DNA from: a virus
Lineage: Duplodnaviria > Heunggongvirae > Uroviricota > Caudoviricetes
Virus record (IMG/VR): IMGVR_UViG_2602041549_000012
DNA: 34,341 nucleotides
Direction: 5' to 3' (one strand)
The notes under the pieces were generated by a model. That model was given only the letters and a program-made list of their open reading frames with translations, did no database searches and was not told where the DNA came from. The translations under genes were made by a program, and so were the position numbers. The number at the start of each line of letters is the position of its first letter. The stretch's first letter is position 1. This document shows, piece after piece, positions 1 to 34,341 of the stretch.

Positions 1-318
1 ATGAAAAAGATAGCTGCTATATCATTAATTAGTATTTTTATTGTGTCTGGTTGTGCTGTGCATAATGATGAGACAAGTATCGGTAAATTTGGTCTTGCAT
101 ATAAAAGTAATATTCAGCGTAAACTCGATAACCAATACTACACCGAAGCCGAAGCTTCTTTAGCCAGGGGCAGAATATCTGGTGCAGAAAATATAGTAAA
201 AAATGATGCAGCCCATTTCTGTGTTACTCAGGGCAAAAAAATGCAGATAGTTGACCTGAAGACAGAAGGTGCAGGATTACATGGCGTCGCTCGTCTGACA
301 TTCAAATGTGGAGAGTGA
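1..318 (+). CDS. Putative small lipoprotein in the host flank (105 aa)
   Basis: Intact ORF with an N-terminal hydrophobic signal followed by Cys (IVSGC, lipobox-like). Lies outside the att core. May correspond to E. coli yegR by position and length, but this is not verified. Confidence 0.55.
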   Translation: MKKIAAISLISIFIVSGCAVHNDETSIGKFGLAYKSNIQRKLDNQYYTEAEASLARGRISGAENIVKNDAAHFCVTQGKKMQIVDLKTEGAGLHGVARLTFKCGE

Positions 319-475
319 GAATATTTTTTGGTAAGCGTCAAACATGCGCGTTCTGGTTGTGCTTAGCCGGAACCTGTGCGAGCACGATGCCGTTACGTGA
401 AAGGCATCGTGCTATGAAGGGAGATTCTATCGATGTGGTCAATGGAAGACGGTGACCAGGGATAGGGCTTATGCA

Positions 476-503
476 TAAAAAATAAGCCCGTGTAAGGGAG
501 ATT
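476..503. repeat. attL: attL core: 28-bp direct repeat identical to 32808-32835
   Basis: Exact 28-bp match (taaaaaataagcccgtgtaagggagatt) at both prophage ends. Matches the P2 att core as I recall it. Confidence 0.8.
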
Positions 504-582
504 TAGGGTGTCACCAGTAGGGGCTTTCAACGGTACAATGCGGGTTTGAGCGGCATAAATTACCACTGAAAGCCCTTAAACG

Positions 583-1596
583 TTACTCTACTGTGGACAC
601 TGTGTGGACACTCTCAGCCTCAGTACCACCTCTTAGCGGATTAAGAGAAATGGCGTCCTGAAGGTACTCTGGCGCAAAATGAGCGTAAACCATAGTTTGC
701 TCAATCCGTGTGTGACCTAGTATCCGTTGTAGCGTGATAATACTTCCTCCATTAATCATGAAATGAGTGGCAAAGCTGTGCCTTAGTGCATGTGTGGCTT
801 GCCCCATTGGCAAATCCGGTTTTATTGCTTTCATTGTTCGTCTGAAGCGAGGATAATCAGCATCAGGGAATAAAAAACCTCGTTTGTTATCCGCGATCAT
901 TTTGGCAACAGCCTCTGAGATCGGGACGGTGCGTGGTTTGTTTGTTTTCGTTTTAACAAACGTGACGCGGTTATGGATGATATTTTCTGCTTTCAAACGA
1001 GCTGCTTCTCCCCAACGTGCTCCAGTACTCAGGCAAAGAATCGCAATCTTTTTGTTGTCGCCATCAAGAGCAGCAAGCAGTAAGGCAATTTCTTCCTGCG
1101 TGAGATAACCTGTGTCTGGTTTTTCCTCCTTAAGCCTTTTTGTCCCTCTGATAGGGTGCTCACCAAAGAATAACTCCGCTTCAATCAGGGCTGTAAACAT
1201 GCCGCTAATACATGTTAAATCACGATTGATACTCGAAGGTTTAATACCCTGACTTCTTCGGGTGGCGCAGTACTGGCTGATAAGCGATTTCGTAATTTGA
1301 AATGCGCATGGGTCATTCGTTATTTTTGTGAAGATTTCAATTTTTCCAAGATTAGATCTCCCATGCTCTTCGTGTTTACCCTTTAAATCCCACCAGATCT
1401 GTGTCAGCTCCGACAGACGTCGCTTGTCTGTTGGTTTTGATAGCCATTCTTTATTGTGGTGGTTGTACAACGTGTATTTCTCGAAAGCGACAGCTTCGCT
1501 TTTCTTATCAAACTTCCTACGGATGCGTTTTCCATTACGTCCAGTAGGGCGGATGTCCACTTCATATCGACCATCATCGAGTTTTTTGATTGCCAT
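583..1596 (-). CDS. int: P2-type tyrosine integrase (337 aa)
   Basis: ATG start with GGAGGG RBS. C-terminal R...HxxR...Y catalytic motif region (ATHALRHSFATHF...). First gene inside attL, as in P2. Confidence 0.9.
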   Translation of the reverse strand: MAIKKLDDGRYEVDIRPTGRNGKRIRRKFDKKSEAVAFEKYTLYNHHNKEWLSKPTDKRRLSELTQIWWDLKGKHEEHGRSNLGKIEIFTKITNDPCAFQITKSLISQYCATRRSQGIKPSSINRDLTCISGMFTALIEAELFFGEHPIRGTKRLKEEKPDTGYLTQEEIALLLAALDGDNKKIAILCLSTGARWGEAARLKAENIIHNRVTFVKTKTNKPRTVPISEAVAKMIADNKRGFLFPDADYPRFRRTMKAIKPDLPMGQATHALRHSFATHFMINGGSIITLQRILGHTRIEQTMVYAHFAPEYLQDAISLNPLRGGTEAESVHTVSTVE

Positions 1597-1711
1597 CAGA
1601 AAACCCTCCGAGTGGTGTGTTTTTTTGCGACTACTAATCGCTTTTTTCGTGGTGGCTGAAATTTAGCCACCAATAGTAGGCACTTGTGATGAATATATTC
1701 ACGATGAATTG

Positions 1712-2011
1712 TTAACCAGTCTTTTGACCGGAGTGGGGCGACGTTGTTTCGTTTTGCCCAAAGTGTGCGAGAGCGGGCGCAATTTGCCCGGACTCAGGAG
1801 CGATCTGATTGGTCATGAACCATAAAGTGTATTTGGTGAATTGTGGGGTCTGCAGGATGTTCATCATGACATCTGTTGGAGGTGTTGAACGACCACTTTC
1901 ATAGTAACTCAGCGTGCCATACGGAACCCCTGTTAAATCAGCAAGTTGTTGTCTGCTCAAATACTCTGATTTTCGCATTAAGACTATCTTCTCGCTTATC
2001 GTGTTTGACAT
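1712..2011 (-). CDS. C: Immunity repressor C (99 aa, helix-turn-helix)
   Basis: 99 aa with an HTH (SRQQLADLTGVPYGTLSYYE). Divergent from cox. Length and sequence match my recollection of P2 C. Confidence 0.85.
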   Translation of the reverse strand: MSNTISEKIVLMRKSEYLSRQQLADLTGVPYGTLSYYESGRSTPPTDVMMNILQTPQFTKYTLWFMTNQIAPESGQIAPALAHFGQNETTSPHSGQKTG

Positions 2012-2125
2012 GGTGTTTAGATCTCAATAGTATTTAGTTTAGATGTAGATTGTTTAGTGCTTGGATGTGGGCACTAAAAGGCATTATAAGGCATTAAACG
2101 CAATTCATGAGGGCTAGAGGACGAC
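2012..2125. promoter_or_regulatory. C/cox developmental switch region (Pe/Pc promoters, putative C operators and Cox boxes)
   Basis: Repeated TTTAG(A/T) motifs at 2015-2059, and three 10-bp-phased aaggcatta / ttaaacgca repeats at 2073-2102, in the intergenic region between divergent C and cox. Confidence 0.5.
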
Positions 2126-2401
2126 ATGAGCAAGCAAGTAACACTCATGACTGATGCGATTCCTTATCAGGAGTTCGCAAAACTAATAGGAAAATCGACA
2201 GGAGCGGTTCGTCGGATGATCGATAAAGGAAAGTTGCCTGTAATTGATATGACCGATCCACAATCAGCTTCAGGTCGTGCTGGTGAATATTGGGTATACC
2301 TTCCGGCATGGAATAACGGACTAAAACTGGCTTATGAAAGCCGCCCTAAAGAAATTCGTGACGGCTGGTTAATGTGGTTAGGTCTCGGTGAACCACGTTA
2401 A
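2126..2401 (+). CDS. cox: Cox excisionase / repressor of Pc (91 aa)
   Basis: 91-aa ORF divergent from C, at the P2 cox position. Confidence 0.85.
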   Translation: MSKQVTLMTDAIPYQEFAKLIGKSTGAVRRMIDKGKLPVIDMTDPQSASGRAGEYWVYLPAWNNGLKLAYESRPKEIRDGWLMWLGLGEPR

Positions 2402-2411
2402 GGAGAACCGT

Positions 2412-2582
2412 ATGAATGAGCCGCGTTGTATTGCTCAGTTATTGCGTAACGAAAGCCCCAGGGCGATTGACTTCACCATCACCCACGGTAAGGGGCGTAA
2501 GGGAATCATTATCCGCACCAAAAAACAGAGTCCGTTAAAGAAGGCTCTGACCTTTCTGAAAAGCCGGAGGGTCTGGAAATGA
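2412..2582 (+). CDS. P2 orf78-like small protein (56 aa from the ATG)
   Basis: The track ORF begins at GTG 2388. The internal ATG at 2412 follows an AAGGAG RBS. Position matches P2 orf78. Confidence 0.5.
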   Translation: MNEPRCIAQLLRNESPRAIDFTITHGKGRKGIIIRTKKQSPLKKALTFLKSRRVWK

Positions 2583-3079
2583 CAGTGATGACGCTTAATC
2601 TCGTTGAAAAACAGCCAGCAGCTATGCGCCGGATAATTGGTAAGCATCTGGCCGTCCCTCGCTGGCAGGATACATGTGATTATTATAATCAGATGATGGA
2701 GCGCGAACGGTTAACGGTTTGCTTTCATGCGCAGTTAAAACAGCGTCACGCAACGATGCGTTTTGAAGAAATGAACGACGTCGAACGTGAACGGCTGGTT
2801 TGTGCAATTGATGAATTGCGTGGGGCATTCTCAAAACGCCGTCAGGTTGGCGCAAGTGAGTATGCATATATTAGTTTTTTAACAGTCAGTCAGCGTCGTA
2901 CTTTATTTATGCATGCCGGATTGACTGAAAAAGAATTCAACCAGCCATACTGGCGAATTAATGAAGAGTCATGTTACTGGCGTGATGCTTTATTCCGTGC
3001 ATTACGTGAATTATTCAGCCTGTTTGAGTATGCACCGACAATTCTGACGTCGGTAAAACCAGAGCAATATCTGCATTAA
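2579..3079 (+). CDS. B: Replication protein B (helicase loader, 166 aa)
   Basis: 166-aa ORF at the P2 B position. ATG overlaps the upstream stop. Confidence 0.8.
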   Translation: MTVMTLNLVEKQPAAMRRIIGKHLAVPRWQDTCDYYNQMMERERLTVCFHAQLKQRHATMRFEEMNDVERERLVCAIDELRGAFSKRRQVGASEYAYISFLTVSQRRTLFMHAGLTEKEFNQPYWRINEESCYWRDALFRALRELFSLFEYAPTILTSVKPEQYLH

Positions 3080-3142
3080 GTAATTAACCAGAGTTTTTAA
3101 CGCACTTAATCGTGCGGGGCTTCTTTTTGCCTGGAGAAAGTC

Positions 3143-3367
3143 ATGCATACAGTTTCTGAAAATCAGTGCGGTAAATACGCATTACTGCTGCAACAGGCCA
3201 GAACCGAAGCACAGGCCGACGCTGCGACGCGCTTTTCTTCTCATCTTGACGCCATGATTCGCCATATCACAAAGGCGGAGTTATCCCGCGTGGAGATAGT
3301 CGAGCTGCTCAGTCAGGAGTCGGAAAAATTTCACAATATCGGATTGTCTCGCGGGGAGGTGCTTTGA
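3143..3367 (+). CDS. P2 orf80-like hypothetical protein (74 aa)
   Basis: Position and size match the P2 early-operon orf80. Confidence 0.55.
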
Positions 3368-3893: not shown

Positions 3894-4165
3894 GTATTCG
3901 TATTGAAATTGGCGAACGTTATGTCGTTACCAGTGACAGCTTTCAGTTTATTCTCCACGAGAAAAAGAGAGCTGAAAGCGGTAAAAACGCCGGTCAGGAA
4001 TGGCTGGCGGTGGTTGGTTATTACCCGAAATTAAGCCAGCTTGTTTCCGGTCTGATGCATCACGATATTCTGACCGGAAGCGCAAAGTCTTTTGCTGATT
4101 TAAACGCGCAGGTTGAGCAACTCAGCAAGCGTTGTTCAGAGGCTTTTGGCTCATATGGCCGTTAA
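3890..4165 (+). CDS. P2 orf83-like hypothetical protein (91 aa)
   Basis: Position and size. ATGA-type overlap with orf82. Confidence 0.55.
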   Translation: MSIRIEIGERYVVTSDSFQFILHEKKRAESGKNAGQEWLAVVGYYPKLSQLVSGLMHHDILTGSAKSFADLNAQVEQLSKRCSEAFGSYGR

Positions 4166-6431
4166 AGCCTCCGGGCGTTTTGTCCCTCCGTCAGCATTTG
4201 CCGCAGGCACCGGTGAGACGTTTACCGGTGCTTATGCATGGAACGCGCCACGCGAGGCCGTCGGGCGCGAAAGACCCCTTACACGTGACGAGATGCGTCA
4301 GGTGCAAGGTGTTTTATCCACGATTAACCGCCTGCCTTACTTTTTGCGCTCGCTGTTTACTTCACGCTATGACTACATCAGGCGCAATAAAAGCCCGGTG
4401 CACGGGTTTTATTTCCTCACATCCACTTTTCAGCGTCGTTTATGGCCGCGCATTGAGCGCGTGAATCAGCGCCATGAAATGAACACCGATGCGTCGTTGC
4501 TGTTTCTGGCAGAGCGCGACCAGTATGCGCGCCTGCCGGGAATGAATGACAAGGAGCTGAAAAAGTTTGCTGCCCGTATCTCATCGCAGCTTTTCATGAT
4601 GTATGAGGAACTCTGCGATGCCTGGGTGGATGCGCATGGCGAGAAAGAATCGCTGTTTACGGATGAGGCGCAGGCTCACCTCTATGGTCATGTTGCTGGC
4701 GCTGCACGTGCTTTCAATATTTCCCCTCTCTACTGGAAAAAATACCGTAAAGGACAGATGACCACGAGGCAGGCATATTCTGCCATTGCCCGTCTGTTTA
4801 ACGATGAGTGGTGGACTCATCAGCTTAAAGGCCAGCGTATGCGCTGGCATGAGGCGTTACTGATAGCTGTCGGGGAGGTCAATAAAGACCGTTCTCCTTA
4901 TGCCAGTAAACATGCCATTCGGGATGTGCGTGCGCGCCGCCAGGCAAATCTGGAATTTCTTAAATCGTGTGACCTTGAAAACAGGGAAACCGGCGAGCGC
5001 ATCGACCTTATCAGTAAGGTGATGGGCAGTATTTCTAATCCTGAAATTCGCCGGATGGAGCTGATGAACACCATTGCCGGTATTGAGCGTTACGCCGCCT
5101 CAGAGGGTGATGTGGGGATGTTTATCACGCTTACCGCGCCGTCAAAGTATCACCCGACACGTCAGGTTGGAAAAGGCGAAAATAAAACCGTCCAGCTTAA
5201 TCACGGCTGGAATGATGAGGCATTTAATCCAAAGGATGCGCAGCGTTATCTCTGCCGTATCTGGAGCCTGATGCGCACGGCATTCAAGGATAATGATTTA
5301 CAGGTCTACGGTTTGCGAGTCGTCGAGCCACACCACGACGGAACGCCGCACTGGCATATGATGCTTTTTTGTAATCCACGCCAGCGTAACCAGATTATCG
5401 AAATCATGCATCGCTATGCGCTCAAAGAGGATGGCGACGAAAGAGGAGCCGCGCGAAACCGTTTTCAGGCAAAACACCTTAACCGGGGCGGTGCTGCGGG
5501 ATATATCGCGAAATACATTTCAAAAAATATCGACGGCTATGCACTGGATGGTCAGCTCGATAACGATACCGGCAGACCGCTGAAAGATACTGCGGCGGCT
5601 GTTACCGCATGGGCGTCAACGTGGCGCATCCCGCAATTTAAAACGGTTGGCCTGCCGACAATGGGAGCTTACCGTGAGCTACGTAAATTGCCTCGCGGCG
5701 TCAGCATTGCTGATGAATTTGACGAACGCGTGGAGGCTGCACGCGCCGCCGCAGACAGTGGCGATTTTGCGCTGTATATCAGCGCGCAGGGCGGGGCAAA
5801 TGTCCCGCGCGATTGTCAGACTGTCAGGGTCGCCCGTAGCCCGTCGGATGACGTTAACGAATACGAGGAAGAAGTCGAGAGAGTGGTCGGCATTTACGCG
5901 CCGCATCTCGGCGCGCGTCATATTCATATCACCAGAACGACGGACTGGCGCATTGTGCCGAAAGTGCCGGTCGTTGAGCCTTTGACTTTAAAAAGCGGCA
6001 TCGCCGCGCCTCGGAGTCCTGTCAATAACTGTGGAAAGCTCACCGGTAGTGATGCTTCGTTACCGGCTCCCACACCTTCTGAGCACGCCGCCGCAGTGCT
6101 TAATCTGGTTGATGACGGTGTTATCGAATGGAATGACCAGGAGGTCGTGAGGGCGCTCAGGGGCGAATTAAAACACGACCTGAGAACACCAAACCGTCAG
6201 CAAAGAAGCGGAAGCCCGTTAAAACCGCATGAAATAGCGCCATCGGCCAGACTGACCCGGTCGGAACGAATGCAAATTACCCGTATCCGCGTTGACCTTG
6301 CTCAGAACGGTATCAGGCCGCAGCGATGGGAGCTTGAGGCGCTGGCGCGTGGGGCAACCGTAAATTATGATGGGAAAAAATTCACGTATCCGGTTGCTGA
6401 TGAGTGGCCGGGGTTCTCGTTACCCATTTGA
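4155..6431 (+). CDS. A: Replication initiator A (rolling-circle nickase)
   Basis: Large ORF at the P2 A position. Contains the HWHMMLF region, consistent with rolling-circle initiator HUH/tyrosine motifs. The track start at 4113 is TTG, so ATG 4155 (MAVKASGRF) is preferred. Confidence 0.85.
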   Translation: MAVKASGRFVPPSAFAAGTGETFTGAYAWNAPREAVGRERPLTRDEMRQVQGVLSTINRLPYFLRSLFTSRYDYIRRNKSPVHGFYFLTSTFQRRLWPRIERVNQRHEMNTDASLLFLAERDQYARLPGMNDKELKKFAARISSQLFMMYEELCDAWVDAHGEKESLFTDEAQAHLYGHVAGAARAFNISPLYWKKYRKGQMTTRQAYSAIARLFNDEWWTHQLKGQRMRWHEALLIAVGEVNKDRSPYASKHAIRDVRARRQANLEFLKSCDLENRETGERIDLISKVMGSISNPEIRRMELMNTIAGIERYAASEGDVGMFITLTAPSKYHPTRQVGKGENKTVQLNHGWNDEAFNPKDAQRYLCRIWSLMRTAFKDNDLQVYGLRVVEPHHDGTPHWHMMLFCNPRQRNQIIEIMHRYALKEDGDERGAARNRFQAKHLNRGGAAGYIAKYISKNIDGYALDGQLDNDTGRPLKDTAAAVTAWASTWRIPQFKTVGLPTMGAYRELRKLPRGVSIADEFDERVEAARAAADSGDFALYISAQGGANVPRDCQTVRVARSPSDDVNEYEEEVERVVGIYAPHLGARHIHITRTTDWRIVPKVPVVEPLTLKSGIAAPRSPVNNCGKLTGSDASLPAPTPSEHAAAVLNLVDDGVIEWNDQEVVRALRGELKHDLRTPNRQQRSGSPLKPHEIAPSARLTRSERMQITRIRVDLAQNGIRPQRWELEALARGATVNYDGKKFTYPVADEWPGFSLPI

Positions 6432-21833: not shown

Positions 21834-24176
21834 ATGAGCACAAAATTCAGAACCGTTATCACCACTGCCGGTGCAGCAAAGCTGGCAGCGGCAACCGCAC
21901 CGGGAGGGCGGAAGGTCAACATTACCACGATGGCCGTCGGGGATGGCGGTGGTAAATTGCCTGTCCCGGATGCCGGACAGACCGGGCTTATCCACGAAGT
22001 CTGGCGACATGCGCTGAACAAAATCAGCCAGGACAAACGAAACAGTAATTATATTATCGCAGAGCTGGTTATTCCGCCGGAGGTGGGCGGTTTCTGGATG
22101 CGTGAGCTTGGCCTGTACGATGATGCGGGAACGTTAATTGCTGTGGCGAACATGGCCGAAAGTTATAAGCCAGCTCTTGCCGAAGGCTCAGGGCGTTCGC
22201 AGACCTGCCGTATGGTCATCATCGTCAGCAGTGTGACCTCAGTGGCGCTGACCATTGACACCACAACGGTGATGGCGACGCAGGATTACGTTGATGACAA
22301 AATTGCAGAACATGAACAGTCACGACGTCACCCGGACGCCTCGCTGACCGCAAAAGGTTTTACTCAGTTAAGCAGTGCGACCAACAGCACGTCTGAAACA
22401 CTGGCTGCAACGCCAAAGGCGGTAAAGGCCGCATATGACCTTGCTAACGGGAAATATACCGCACAGGACGCCACCACAGCACGAAAAGGCCTTGTCCAGC
22501 TCAGTAGTGCCACCAACAGCACGTCTGAAACGCTCGCCGCAACACCAAAAGCGGTAAAAGCAGCATATGACCTTGCTAACGGGAAATATACCGCACAGGA
22601 CGCCACCACAGCACGAAAAGGCCTTGTCCAGCTCAGTAGTGCCACCAACAGCACGTCTGAAACGCTCGCCGCAACACCAAAAGCGGTAAAAGCAGCATAT
22701 GACCTTGCTAACGGGAAATATACCGCACAGGACGCCACCACAGCGCGAAAAGGCCTTGTTCAGCTCAGTAGCGCCACCAACAGCGATTCTGAAACGCTTG
22801 CGGCAACGCCAAAGGCGGTTAAGACAGCGTATGACCTTGCTAACGGGAAATACACTGCACAGGATGCCACCACAGCGCGAAAAGGTCTTGTCCAGCTCAG
22901 TAGCGCCACCAACAGTGATTCTGAAACGCTGGCTGCAACACCAAAAGCGGTGAAGTCTGCCTATGACAATGCTGAAAAACGTCTTCAGAAAGATCAGAAC
23001 GGTGCGGATATTCCGGGAAAGGATACCTTCACGAAAAATATCGGTGCCTGTCGTGCTTATAGCGGCGCTTTGAGCACTGAAGCCGGAAACTGGACAACCG
23101 CTCAGTTTATTGACTGGCTAGAGTCTCAGGGAGCCTTTAATCATCCTTACTGGATGTGCAAGTGTTCCTGGTCATATGGTAATAACAAAATTATTACCGA
23201 TACTGACTGTGGGACTATTCATCTTGCAGGTTGCGTGATTGAGGTTATGGGCGTTAAAGCAGCAATGACCATTCGTGTGACCACTCCGAGTACATCAAGC
23301 GGTGGTGGTACCACCAGTGCGCAATTCACGTATATCAATCACGGAGCTGATTATGCGCCGGGCTGGCGACGCGACTACAATACGAAAAATAAGCAACCGG
23401 CTTTTGCATTAGGGAAAACAGGAAATACGGTTGCAAATAATAAAGCGGTAGGATGGAACTGGGACAGTGGTGCTTATTGTGCACAGGATGGCGGCGCATC
23501 AAAAATGGTGTTGCATTTTTACACGGGTGAGGGAAGTTGTCCGGCAATGCAGTTTCTTGTGGATTATAAAAACAGGGGGATTTTTTACAGGTCGGCACGT
23601 GATGGGTATGGATTTGAGGCTGACTGGTCAGAGTTTTATACCACATCACGAAAGCCAACACCTGCGGATATTCTTGCTCTGGCATTATCAGGCGGAAGCA
23701 TGTCAGGCAGCATAAAATTTATCAATGATGCCTTCCTGATTTGGGAAAGAAACACTGACTGGGCGAAAATTGGATTTAAAAATGATTCAGATGCTGATTC
23801 TGACTCATACATGTGGTTTGAAACTGGTGATAATGGCAATGAATATTTTAAATGGCGCATCAGGTCTGGCAGCACAACAAAAGATCTGATGACGCTTAAG
23901 TCTGATGCACTACGGGTTACCGGGCAGGTGATACCATCAAATTTCAGCAATTTTGACTCCCGCTATGTCCGGGATATCCGACTTGGTGGTGCCGCCACAT
24001 ACAAACCTGCGAACAATGGCATGACATGGACACATCAGGCACCGTCCGGGTGTGTATATACCGGCATTATTGTTCAGGATACCGGCTCAAACTCTGCCGA
24101 TAACATTGGTGGCGTATATTACAGACCGGTTCAGAAATACATTAACGGGACATGGTACAACGTGGCGCAGGTATAA
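21834..24176 (+). CDS. H: Tail fiber protein H (780 aa) with internal tandem repeats and an AT-rich distal domain
   Basis: Conserved N-terminus (MSTKFRTVITTAGAAKLAAA...). Phage-fibre repeat motif SATNSTSETLAATPKAVK. Longer than P2 H as I recall it. Confidence 0.85.
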   Translation: MSTKFRTVITTAGAAKLAAATAPGGRKVNITTMAVGDGGGKLPVPDAGQTGLIHEVWRHALNKISQDKRNSNYIIAELVIPPEVGGFWMRELGLYDDAGTLIAVANMAESYKPALAEGSGRSQTCRMVIIVSSVTSVALTIDTTTVMATQDYVDDKIAEHEQSRRHPDASLTAKGFTQLSSATNSTSETLAATPKAVKAAYDLANGKYTAQDATTARKGLVQLSSATNSTSETLAATPKAVKAAYDLANGKYTAQDATTARKGLVQLSSATNSTSETLAATPKAVKAAYDLANGKYTAQDATTARKGLVQLSSATNSDSETLAATPKAVKTAYDLANGKYTAQDATTARKGLVQLSSATNSDSETLAATPKAVKSAYDNAEKRLQKDQNGADIPGKDTFTKNIGACRAYSGALSTEAGNWTTAQFIDWLESQGAFNHPYWMCKCSWSYGNNKIITDTDCGTIHLAGCVIEVMGVKAAMTIRVTTPSTSSGGGTTSAQFTYINHGADYAPGWRRDYNTKNKQPAFALGKTGNTVANNKAVGWNWDSGAYCAQDGGASKMVLHFYTGEGSCPAMQFLVDYKNRGIFYRSARDGYGFEADWSEFYTTSRKPTPADILALALSGGSMSGSIKFINDAFLIWERNTDWAKIGFKNDSDADSDSYMWFETGDNGNEYFKWRIRSGSTTKDLMTLKSDALRVTGQVIPSNFSNFDSRYVRDIRLGGAATYKPANNGMTWTHQAPSGCVYTGIIVQDTGSNSADNIGGVYYRPVQKYINGTWYNVAQV
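22353..22967 (+). repeat. Tandem 132-bp (44-aa) repeats inside H, about 4.7 copies
   Basis: Units start at 22353, 22485, 22617, 22749 and 22881 (partial). Units 2 and 3 appear identical at the DNA level. Confidence 0.85.
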
Positions 24177-24179
24177 TTT

Positions 24180-24707
24180 ATGCAGCATTTGATAAATATA
24201 ACGGCAGGTAATCCAAAAACGGTTGAACAATATCAATTGACAAAGAACTTTGATGTCGTCTGGTTTTTTACAGAAGATGGTAAGAACTGGTACGAAGAAC
24301 AAAAGTATTTTGCTGATGACACGATAAAAATAGCGTACGACAAAGATAATATCATCCGCTATGTGGAAAAGGATGTGACAGCTATCAGACCGGATGGATT
24401 AAGTGTGGTTGAAGTGGCGGATATTACTGCTAACCGACGGGCGGACATTTCAGGGAACTGGATGTTTAAGGACGGCAAAGTGATTAAACGCATTTATACG
24501 GCAGAGGAATTGCAGCAGCAGGCAGAAAATCGGAAAGCCAGACTTCTTGCAGATGCTGAATCCGTAATTTTGCCGCTGGAACGCGCTGTCAGGCTGAATA
24601 TGGCGACGGATGAAGAGCGCACACGACTGGAAGCATGGGAACGCTACAGCGTTCTGGTCAGTCGTGTGGATCCTGCAAATCCTGAATGGCCGGAAATGCC
24701 GCAATAA
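24180..24707 (+). CDS. G: Tail fiber assembly chaperone G (175 aa)
   Basis: Immediately follows H. Length and position. Confidence 0.75.
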
Positions 24708-32488: not shown

Positions 32489-32707
32489 ATGTTTCATTGT
32501 CCTTTATGCCAGCATGCCGCACATGCGCGTACAAGTCGCTATATCACTGACACGACAAAAGAGCGTTATCACCAGTGCCAGAACGTGAATTGCAGCGCCA
32601 CGTTCATCACTTATGAGTCGGTACAGCGATACATCGTGAAGCCGGGAGAAGTCCACGCCGTAAGGCCGCACCCGTTGCCGTCAGGGCAGCAAATTATGTG
32701 GATGTAA
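32489..32707 (+). CDS. ogr: Late-gene transcription activator Ogr (72 aa, zinc finger)
   Basis: From the internal ATG: MFHCPLCQH...CQNVNCSATF (CxxC...CxxxxC). Last phage gene before attR. Confidence 0.85.
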   Translation: MFHCPLCQHAAHARTSRYITDTTKERYHQCQNVNCSATFITYESVQRYIVKPGEVHAVRPHPLPSGQQIMWM

Positions 32708-32720
32708 TTACAAACAGGAA

Positions 32721-32744
32721 GCCCCTCAGTCGAGGGGCTTTTTT
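32721..32744 (+). terminator. Rho-independent terminator after ogr
   Basis: GCCCCTC-agtc-GAGGGGC followed by TTTTTT. Confidence 0.7.
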
Positions 32745-32807
32745 GTCGATGTGGTCAATGTGTGGACGTGACCAGAAATAAATCCTTTTATTTCAGTGTA
32801 TTACGCG

Positions 32808-32835
32808 TAAAAAATAAGCCCGTGTAAGGGAGATT
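32808..32835. repeat. attR: attR core: 28-bp direct repeat identical to 476-503
   Basis: Exact duplicate of the attL core. Overlaps the 3' terminator of cyaR. Confidence 0.8.
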
Positions 32836-32895
32836 ACACAGGCTAAGGAGGTGGTTCCTGGTACAGCTAGCATTTTATGGGTTATGTTTTTCAGC
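32809..32895 (-). ncRNA. cyaR: CyaR (RyeE) sRNA, Hfq-dependent and CRP-activated
   Basis: The reverse complement reads GCTGAAAAACATAACCCATAAAATGCTAGC...CCTCCTTAGCC...CCCTTACACGGGCTTATTTTTT, matching CyaR as I recall it. It ends in a terminator hairpin plus U-run that coincides with the att core. Confidence 0.8.
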
Positions 32896-32979
32896 GAAAC
32901 GGATGATAACCTTAATAAATGCAGCTGTATGTGATCGGTTTCTAAGAATTTTCCATCCGGGAAAAATAATCGAAATTAA

Positions 32980-34341
32980 TCACTTACCGTGGGGGTTACG
33001 CGTGGTTTCCCCGGAGAAATTACGCATCAGCAGCGCGTAATTTAGCTCAAGATCCTGCGGCACCGGGAGCCACACAGTATAACCATCGCCTGGTGCTACC
33101 GGCATAGCTTCGCCTTTGGCGTTTTCCATGTGCTCAAGGGTAAAGTTAATGTTGCCTTGCGGCGTCATCAGCTCAAGGCTGTCGCCAACGGAGAATTTAT
33201 TTTTCACCGCTACCGCCGCGAGGTCCCCCTTGCGCTCACCGGTAAACTCACCAACAAACTGCTGGCGGTCAGAAACCGAATAACCGTATTCGTAGTTCTG
33301 ATAATCGTCGTGAGTATGACGACGCAGGAAACCTTCGGTATAGCCACGATGCGCCAGACCTTCCAGAGTTTCCAGCAGGCTGGTATCGAACGGTTTGCCC
33401 GCAGCGGCATCATCGATAGCTTTACGATAAACCTGTGCGGTGCGTGCGCAATAGTAGAAAGATTTAGTACGGCCTTCGATCTTCAGCGAATGCACGCCCA
33501 TTTTGGTCAGGCGTTCTACATGGGCGATGGCGCGCAGATCTTTCGAGTTCATGATGTAAGTGCCGTGCTCATCTTCAAACGCGGTCATATACTCGCCCGG
33601 ACGCTGGGCCTCTTCGATCATAAACACTTTGTCGGTTGGTGCGCCGATACCCAGCGTCGGCTCAACATTTTGCACCGGAATCGGCTCGTACTTGTGTACG
33701 ATGTTGCCAACATCATCTTCTTTCCCTTCCTGGACGTTGTACTCCCAGCGGCAGGCGTTGGTGCAGGTGCCCTGGTTCGGGTCGCGCTTGTTGATATAGC
33801 CAGAGAGCAGGCAGCGACCGGAGTAGGCCATGCACAGCGCGCCGTGAACGAAGATCTCGATCTCCATATCCGGCACCTGATTGCGGATCTCTTCAATCTC
33901 TTCCAGCGACAGCTCGCGAGAGAGGATCACGCGGGTCAGGCCCATTTGCTGCCAGAATTTCACCGTCGCCCAGTTCACGGCGTTAGCCTGCACCGAAAGG
34001 TGGATCGGCATTTCAGGGAAGTGCTCACGCACCAGCATAATCAGCCCTGGATCGGACATAATCAGCGCATCCGGCCCCATTTCCACCACCGGTTTCAGGT
34101 CACGGATAAAGGTTTTCAGCTTGGCGTTGTGCGGTGCAATGTTGACCACGACATAAAACTTTTTCCCCAGCGCGTGGGCTTCATTGATGCCGAGCTGAAG
34201 ATTTTCGTGGTTGAATTCGTTGTTGCGCACACGCAGGGAATAACGCGGCTGGCCCGCATAAACAGCATCTGCGCCATAAGCGAAAGCGTAACGCATATTT
34301 TTCAGCGTTCCCGCCGGGGAAAGGAGTTCCGGTTTAAACAT
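32980..34341 (-). CDS. yegQ: Peptidase U32-family protein YegQ (RlhA-type), 453 aa
   Basis: Full-length ORF reaching the window edge. Sequence recognised as E. coli YegQ. Host flank to the right of attR. Confidence 0.8.
   Translation of the reverse strand: MFKPELLSPAGTLKNMRYAFAYGADAVYAGQPRYSLRVRNNEFNHENLQLGINEAHALGKKFYVVVNIAPHNAKLKTFIRDLKPVVEMGPDALIMSDPGLIMLVREHFPEMPIHLSVQANAVNWATVKFWQQMGLTRVILSRELSLEEIEEIRNQVPDMEIEIFVHGALCMAYSGRCLLSGYINKRDPNQGTCTNACRWEYNVQEGKEDDVGNIVHKYEPIPVQNVEPTLGIGAPTDKVFMIEEAQRPGEYMTAFEDEHGTYIMNSKDLRAIAHVERLTKMGVHSLKIEGRTKSFYYCARTAQVYRKAIDDAAAGKPFDTSLLETLEGLAHRGYTEGFLRRHTHDDYQNYEYGYSVSDRQQFVGEFTGERKGDLAAVAVKNKFSVGDSLELMTPQGNINFTLEHMENAKGEAMPVAPGDGYTVWLPVPQDLELNYALLMRNFSGETTRNPHGK

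Follow-up and report, generated by a model that had tools for sequence, protein, structure and literature searches.

A short stretch of E. coli DNA, next to the attachment site used by P2-type phages, is probably a decayed remnant of the right end (P arm) of a much older P2-family prophage, most of which has since been deleted. The stretch (positions 416 or 430 to 476) lies in a window of 34,341 nucleotides, by which we mean the whole length of DNA analysed. The window runs from yegR to yegQ and contains a resident P2-like prophage. Its features are listed in Table 1. Note that the att core is the 3' half of the cyaR terminator, and that the attL core duplicates the end of that terminator (repeat family D14). 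Similarity between the two junctions reaches beyond the cores themselves (469-503 compared with 32801-32835, 94%; also family D14). By register with P2, and using the P2 annotation, the P' arm of the resident prophage has Cox sites at approximately 520-593 and Int arm repeats at 591-617. In a Pfam search, int was followed by C, then cox, and further genes through ogr. Elsewhere in the resident prophage, five to six tandem repeats of 132 nt (44 aa) occupy 22220-23011, within a 780-aa tail-fibre-like ORF (21834-24176).

Table 1. Coordinates of features in the 34,341-nt window, with the basis for each assignment.
Feature	Position	Strand	Basis
yegR, 105-aa small lipoprotein gene	1-318	+	ORF list, yegR annotation
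Flank between yegR and attL core (158 nt)	319-476		
Hairpin, 11-bp stem, 11-nt loop	381-413	.	Folding
Stretch holding 'core-like' AAGGGAGATT (417-426)	416-429	+	In-register match to 32732-32745
Putative degenerate P-arm Int (arm-type) site of fossil prophage	430-459	+	Homologous to P2 'Int P arm'
Putative remnant between arm site and core	460-476	+	Alignments
attL core, 27 bp	477-503	+	Identical to 32809-32835 and P2 attP core
P' arm, resident prophage	504-617	+	Close by-eye match to P2 (L004)
Integrase, resident P2-like prophage	583-1596	-	Pfam Int_N 2.8e-24, Phage_integrase 8.7e-22
ogr, late-gene activator, resident prophage	32489-32707	+	Pfam Ogr_Delta 1.1e-21; annotated ogr in matching phages
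ogr terminator	32719-32742	+	Register with P2 annotation
Intact P-arm Int binding site, modern counterpart of 430-459	32746-32773	+	P2 annotation
P-arm IHF site, without counterpart in relic	32777-32810	+	P2 annotation
attR core	32809-32835	+	
cyaR sRNA gene	32812-32897	-	Rfam RF00112, 100.7 bits, E 4.8e-21
yegQ, conserved right-hand neighbour, cross-species anchor	32980-34341	-	Annotation

The original prediction was that 431-459, in the flank, matches phage DNA just downstream of the ogr terminator (32747-32775), apart from a block of 7 nt. We confirmed this match. Identities cover 431-444 (32747-32760) and 452-459 (32768-32775), and t430 also pairs with t32746. Hence, 430-444 and 452-459 provide 15 and 8 exact bases (32746-32760 and 32768-32775), separated by a divergent block. 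The block is itself a decayed copy: if one indel is permitted, GAAGAC aligns with GTGGAC at four of six positions. The similarity is also apparent as an ungapped repeat of 49 nt (416-464 and 32732-32780; family D6) with 71% identity. Local alignment of the flank (319-475) with the spacer between ogr and the core (32708-32817) gave a score of 22. Dinucleotide-preserving shuffles scored 8.2 +/- 1.3, with a maximum of 16. It had been set down beforehand that the similarity should be significant in a proper alignment, and none of 5000 shuffles reached the observed score. No other 38-mer in the window matches 427-464 at 22 or more positions.

In P2 (NC_001895), the homologue of the matched segment is annotated 'Int P arm' (24293-24320). 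It is followed by an IHF site (annotated at 24324-24357) and then by the core. The consensus for arm-type sites bound by P2 Int is tgTGGaCa (PMC3448106). The relic keeps the first repeat, ATGTGGTCAA, intact. In place of the second, TGTGTGGAC, it has the degenerate TGGAAGAC (GGAAGAC, compared with GTGTGGAC in the phage), followed by an intact 8-mer, GTGACCAG. A deletion of approximately 16 nt has removed the IHF site, including AAATAAATCCTTTTATTTCA, and the alignment places none between the arm repeats and the core. The eight nucleotides closest to the core, TTATGCAT, match the phage sequence TTACGCGT at six positions. An attR junction is expected to have, among other features, a core identical to that in P2 attP and, upstream of it, two direct arm-type Int repeats. 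The 27 bp at 477-503 are identical to the P2 attP core, and one of the repeats is intact. The latter fits a relic rather than a working arm. We saw no ogr gene to the left of the relic arm, where the flank resembles only the terminator tail (8/14 positions). A tblastn search with Ogr, in a set that excluded the E. coli flank, matched only three other loci. The flank segment is therefore best regarded as a degenerate P arm, with its elements arranged and oriented towards the core as they should be. The comparison thus supports the view that 430-459 derives from an older P2-family prophage.

An integrated prophage has two ends, and we looked at the same locus in 80 other species of Enterobacteriaceae, anchored on YegQ. 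The species listed are without E. fergusonii, E. marmotae and E. ruysiae, and just one Escherichia other than E. coli has an uninterrupted site. In 47 species, among the 80 listed, the start of yegS is 74-117 nt from the cyaR core. In E. coli, the distance is approximately 880 nt. Escherichia sp. E1V33 has the short spacer, and carries neither yegR nor arm-like sequence. The short spacer in outgroups indicates that the whole E. coli flank is an insertion, and that the ancestral state was without this islet. Relative to ancestral synteny, the insertion is located exactly at the att core.

The other end of the islet was also recognisable. The yegS-proximal spacer of E. coli is collinear with that of E1V33 exactly as far as the E1V33 core. 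At this breakpoint in synteny, E. coli has a decayed core, AAAAAGTCAGTTCAAGTATGGAGGATT, and then CAGTGGTTACCACCAGGAGCTTGCAATGG. Together, these are identical to the live core and P' arm at 41 of 58 positions. The alignment score is 21, compared with 10.6 +/- 1.3 for shuffled sequences, and none of 2000 shuffles reached this value. Alignment of the P' arm past approximately 60 nt contained many gaps and was discarded as untrustworthy. The left scar adjoins yegS, 294-320 nt upstream of the yegR ATG and outside the window. It has the same sequence in the five E. coli-type loci where it was read (L001, L002, L003, L005 and L096). We also used a set of 5426 complete E. coli genomes. The intergenic region that holds the left scar is present, at a coverage of at least 80%, in 5289 of them. 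The left and right ends of the islet are each approximately 71% identical to modern P2-type sequence, with P' beside the left copy of the core and P beside the right copy. The interior is atypical in composition, having a GC content of 0.37-0.39 compared with 0.51-0.54 in neighbouring genes. BLAST searches with 319-476, and with the AT-rich part, against the loci retrieved and the resident prophage, returned the arm site only. Judged from sequence, the decayed core and P' arm beside yegS are a far better candidate for the old attL than 417-426, which had been proposed originally. If the old attL is beside yegS, yegR lies inside the relic.

On a literal reading of the original prediction, the old attL was an extra copy of AAGGGAGATT at 417-426, and the prophage had been lost from just after this core into its P arm. 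The result would be a short tandem scar, like that in K-12. The 10-mer is indeed exact, and is found on either strand only at 417, 494 (attL core) and 32826 (attR core), all core-type positions in the window. In addition, CGTG to its left can be aligned to the core, by reading, with a gap of 3 nt. The K-12 allele also shares GGAGGATTC with the decayed core beside yegS, so a second, nested scar is conceivable. However, the 36-mer at 405-440 is exact in only 2581 E. coli genomes and has two mismatches in 2141, K-12-type and UTI89 alleles reading aaggaggatt at 417-426. Hence, the 10-mer is exact in only about half of genomes. Both alleles are common and spread across phylogroups. Furthermore, 416-429 aligns with 32732-32745 without gaps and in register (8/14; binomial estimate p ~0.01; family D6), so coinciding with the ogr terminator tail. 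The most economical reading of 416-429 is as a degraded form of the old ogr terminator, comprising its 3' half and T-tail. There is no P'-arm sequence after 417-426, while a better core, with a P' scar, is found beside yegS, so 417-426 is not needed as a core scar. Finally, the K-12 remnant is elsewhere, to the right of the flank. We consider an old attL at 417-426 unlikely.

Nearby, the hairpin noted originally was confirmed, with an 11-bp stem formed by 381-391 and 403-413. The 59 nt that contain it (372-430) fold with a free energy of -24.6 kcal/mol (z = -4.4 compared with shuffles). In positions 1-700, no terminator was scored, there was no match to Rfam, and the hairpin has no T tail. The top two pairs are weakened in UTI89 and hence provide no support from covariation. 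The hairpin may be a weak stop for yegR transcription.

The flank is not a property of individual strains. Positions 1-503 of the window are present, again at a coverage of at least 80%, in 5382 of the 5426 complete E. coli genomes (~99%), and the right end of the islet in 5382-5413. An empty site, meaning an uninterrupted junction between flank, core and cyaR, was found in 4191 (77%), and was seen directly in MLI107 and UTI89. Hence, the flank is the ordinary B arm of the attachment site and is peculiar neither to a strain nor to lysogens. A strain-specific reading of the relic and prophage as a tandem is thus not supported. Presence of the similarity in the bacterial attB of strains that never carried a P2-like element had been offered as grounds for rejecting an older integration. 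Taken literally, the similarity is there. However, this argument does not work, since comparison with outgroups identifies the entire flank as an insertion in E. coli. In UTI89 (L003, 1825-1994), an AT-rich insertion of 170 nt lies right after the yegR stop codon, between the equivalents of window positions 325 and 326. Such insertions, in UTI89-type sequences, are the cause of matches to window 1-503 that fall in two pieces (H23-H28).

The flank had also been compared to the ogrK/yegZ remnant of K-12. In a K-12-type strain, the flank is shared up to the equivalent of position 494. Next come D', ogrK, an intact P arm, the core and cyaR. The core in this locus (L002, 2472-2500) carries one extra A. 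Thus, the K-12 remnant is not the counterpart of the flank; it sits to the right, at the position of the prophage. Consistent with this distinction, 320-520 has neither the D' fragment nor ogr. Since K-12 shares the flank, and has the remnant to its right, K-12 carries the relic plus a later remnant. On this reading of the sequences, the K-12 remnant is the later layer, and the flank relic is older, lying beneath remnant and prophage alike. Overall, an older P2-like integration, marked by its ogr-proximal P-arm tip and reuse of the surviving core, stands from the original prediction. The role given to the 10-mer, equivalence with the K-12 remnant, and specificity to the strain are not supported.

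An arm-type half-site could have been kept because it is functional. Binding of this half-site, in attB or attL, by the N-terminal domain of P2 Int might then affect which site is preferred, or how excision proceeds. Amid decayed neighbours, the first repeat and the 8-mer still match modern P2 exactly. The 15-mer, too, is unchanged across the five E. coli-type sequences that were read; among these, ON470606.1 matches 376-503 at 96.9%. Yet the 71% identity of the relic is the same as that of the other end, which is clearly functionless. Moreover, the 8-mer varies in K-12 (gttaccag), the IHF site has gone, and the spacing to the core is shorter by approximately 16 nt. Retention for function is therefore quite improbable. 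Similarly doubtful is the idea that Int still binds the surviving arm-type site of the fossil attR at the canonical, preferred P2 site of E. coli. If so, attL in lysogens would have arm-type sites on both sides, like attP, and this could add to the strong preference of P2 for the site or to its notoriously poor excision. Because the IHF site and one repeat are missing, and divergence equals that of the inert left end, we infer that the relic is now a functionless, neutral fossil.

The direction of transfer could, in principle, be reversed. A P2 ancestor might have taken the bacterial B flank by aberrant excision (generating B-O-P'), so that the P arm came from E. coli. By the logic of gal and bio transduction in lambda, we would expect such an event to put B-flank DNA at the position of the P arm. 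However, a module comprising the terminator, ATGTGGTCAAT-GTGTGGAC, and the AAATAAATCCTTTTATTTCA IHF site adjoins cyaR in 9 species, among the 80 listed. The P2-like elements of these nine species thus have the arm in conserved form, with both Int repeats and the IHF site. Many P2-like phages carry it too, although their similarity to the window phage ends before the core (query positions 1-96). Hence, the arm module is intrinsic to the phage, and the E. coli flank, which lacks the IHF site and one repeat and is an insertion according to the outgroups, is a broken copy. The non-consensus GTGACCAG is common only to the E. coli flank, P2 and the window phage; locus L085 has GTGACCTG. Sharing of GTGACCAG, which varies among elements, argues for common descent and not for convergence on a binding motif. 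Acquisition of the arm from E. coli is very unlikely, being largely refuted, and the sequences indicate that transfer was from phage to host. Weaker still, to the point of being refuted by the shuffles and the left scar, is the notion that the flank is ordinary bacterial intergenic DNA matched by chance: the match does comprise only 15 + 8 bases, and prophage-free strains also conserve the flank, but no shuffle of 5000 attained its score, its placement and direction with respect to the core agree with those in the phage, an independent second scar occurs at the predicted other end, and outgroups lack the flank.

We propose the following course of events for the decayed prophage. In an ancestor of E. 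coli, an ancient P2-family phage would have integrated at the 3' end of cyaR by means of Int. Nearly the entire prophage would then have been deleted, leaving an islet of approximately 0.8 kb that became fixed in the species. At its left end, beside the ancestral yegS-cyaR spacer, the islet would retain a decayed core and the first 30-65 nt of the P' arm. From left to right, the interior would comprise approximately 300 nt of AT-rich DNA, yegR, and the hairpin. At the right end would be the intact 27-bp core, preceded by what is left of the P arm, which has kept one intact Int repeat out of two and lost the IHF site. Formally, this core would be the attR of the fossil, and it is also the attB used by P2-type phages today. 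The core stays intact because it is the cyaR terminator, which is under selection, and the same phage family can reuse the site. Integration of the resident prophage at the fossil attR core would thus have put the fossil P arm on the bacterial side of attL. We infer that both ends of the islet result from one integration event.

The position of yegR, inside the islet, raises the question of whether this gene was delivered by the phage. Among the 80 other species listed, yegR is absent from the interval between yegS and cyaR. Its GC content is 0.39, compared with 0.51-0.54 in neighbouring genes, and YegR homologues are nearly restricted to E. coli and Shigella. The YegR lipoprotein has been detected in the membrane proteome of O157:H7 (PMC3210124). 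No recognisable phage gene is left in the islet. Deposited phage genomes contain YegR only in records that include host flank, and the same is true of intergenic DNA between yegS and yegR in the phage collection. As a phage source for a variant of the flank, two records in the phage collection were matched and dismissed, since both carry host flank. We also considered, and rejected, occurrence of yegR within other P2-like prophages. The few distant homologues (47-83% identity) are at unrelated loci, in chromosomal or IS-rich surroundings, where resemblance at the DNA level does not extend beyond the ORF. For instance, three metagenome or MAG contigs (L093-L095) carry a yegR homologue (P0019; 80% identity; L093 3001-3318). 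There, in the genome of another enterobacterium, yegR has a glutaminase gene on one side and a nitroreductase/ivy/acs cluster on the other. An ORF of 110 aa lies 3 nt downstream, and DNA homology to E. coli is again limited to the yegR ORF. Foldseek searches with the predicted YegR fold (pLDDT 78), against the PDB and viral models, returned nothing at E <= 0.001.

Based on position, composition, and the analogous arrangement in E. albertii described below, it is plausible that yegR is surviving cargo of the fossil phage. If true, yegR would have begun as a phage cargo gene (moron), since domesticated and fixed throughout the species. Conversely, distant homologues in unrelated contexts mean that yegR could have entered separately from the fossil phage.

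Two observations concern the databases. First, phrog_21109 matches YegR (E 9e-71), and this match probably stems from mis-bounded prophages. Second, ON470606.1 (Escherichia phage vB_EcoM-720R8) and AY639599.1 (Phage TP) are deposited as phage records, but include host DNA. In such records, the host DNA consists of gatR, yegS and yegR, or of a K-12-type remnant with yegQ. At the cyaR locus, programs calling prophage boundaries stretch P2-like prophages into yegR and yegS. Among the products of this overreach are one or more deposited 'phage' records and, probably, a PHROG family.

If our reading is correct, what textbooks give as the P2 attachment site in E. coli is no untouched piece of host DNA: it is a junction left over from an earlier integration, by a phage of the same family. 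An orphan lipoprotein gene, yegR, gains a plausible origin. The flank itself would be an ordinary evolutionary scar; prophage scars of this kind are well known and the example is new.

The 3' end of cyaR has hosted comparable events elsewhere. At the same offset from yegS, E. albertii has a repeat of the core, differing at two positions, and then a P' arm of P2 type that is almost intact. The order continues with cdtABC, an IS fragment and a truncated P arm, up to the live core. Thus, in E. albertii NBRC 107761 (L009, 5530-8930), cdtABC is located in a decayed P2-like prophage between yegS and cyaR, with the IS fragment abutting the arm. The E. albertii cdt region is 86% identical to P2-like phages carrying cdt-V, in which cdt adjoins cos. 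In four Enterobacter loci (L065, L074, L069 and L078), core repeats with 4-11 mismatches are positioned 78-79 nt from the start of yegS. These repeats flank insertions of 1.7-2.7 kb at the cyaR site, and the insertions in L069 and L078 end in P2-type P arms. Together, the E. albertii and Enterobacter insertions mark the cyaR terminator as a recurrent site, or hotspot, of integration and decay in Enterobacteriaceae, with examples in E. coli (yegR), E. albertii (cdtABC) and several Enterobacter.

A further locus of note is L007 (CP169086.1, labelled Enterobacter hormaechei B17-3; 4001-5533 and 251-3329). Here, DNA from yegQ through cyaR to the core is 98.6% identical to the E. coli window, and this identity stops exactly at the distal end of the att core. 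Beyond the core, the sequence is Enterobacter-like (85% to E. asburiae). Upstream of yegQ, it is 92% identical to Escherichia sp. E1V33 and 78% to Enterobacter. The locus looks like an Escherichia-derived tract bounded by the att core, and could reflect either att-mediated transfer or a chimeric assembly.

Three known systems offer a comparison. The first is the islet in E. albertii, which has the same insertion point as that in E. coli. The architecture is also shared: yegS spacer, core repeat, P' arm, cargo, truncated P arm and live core. However, the E. albertii islet is much younger, with a P' arm nearly identical to P2, and an IS fragment marks one endpoint of the deletion. Unlike yegR, its cargo is clearly phage-borne, because cdt-V sits in P2-like phages beside cos. 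The truncated arms also differ. E. albertii retains the IHF site but has lost the first Int repeat; in E. coli, the opposite is true.

The second is the ogrK-yegZ remnant of K-12, which Barreiro and Haggard-Ljungquist are said to have described, in 1992, as a P2 remnant at the preferred P2 attachment site. Like the flank relic, it is a P2-family prophage, located at the cyaR core, that has decayed via internal deletion, and both keep the right end (P arm and attR core). The K-12 deletion starts inside the attL core, at the equivalent of position 494 and after CCCGTGTA, and joins directly to gene D. The remnant is young, being almost identical to the D-ogr-attR region of the window where the two can be compared; for the flank relic, the figure is approximately 70%. 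Furthermore, the K-12 remnant retains ogr and a fragment of D, whereas the flank relic has no phage gene, and the remnant is limited to certain strains while the relic is in ~99% of E. coli.

The third comparison is with cryptic, or 'grounded', prophages in general. These arise by site-specific integration, followed by deletional decay, so that att scars and cargo become fixed in the host. The E. coli relic would have followed the same course, but its decay is extreme, with no phage gene left. It also differs in that, being part of an sRNA terminator, the attR of the fossil would still serve phages of the same family as a live attB.
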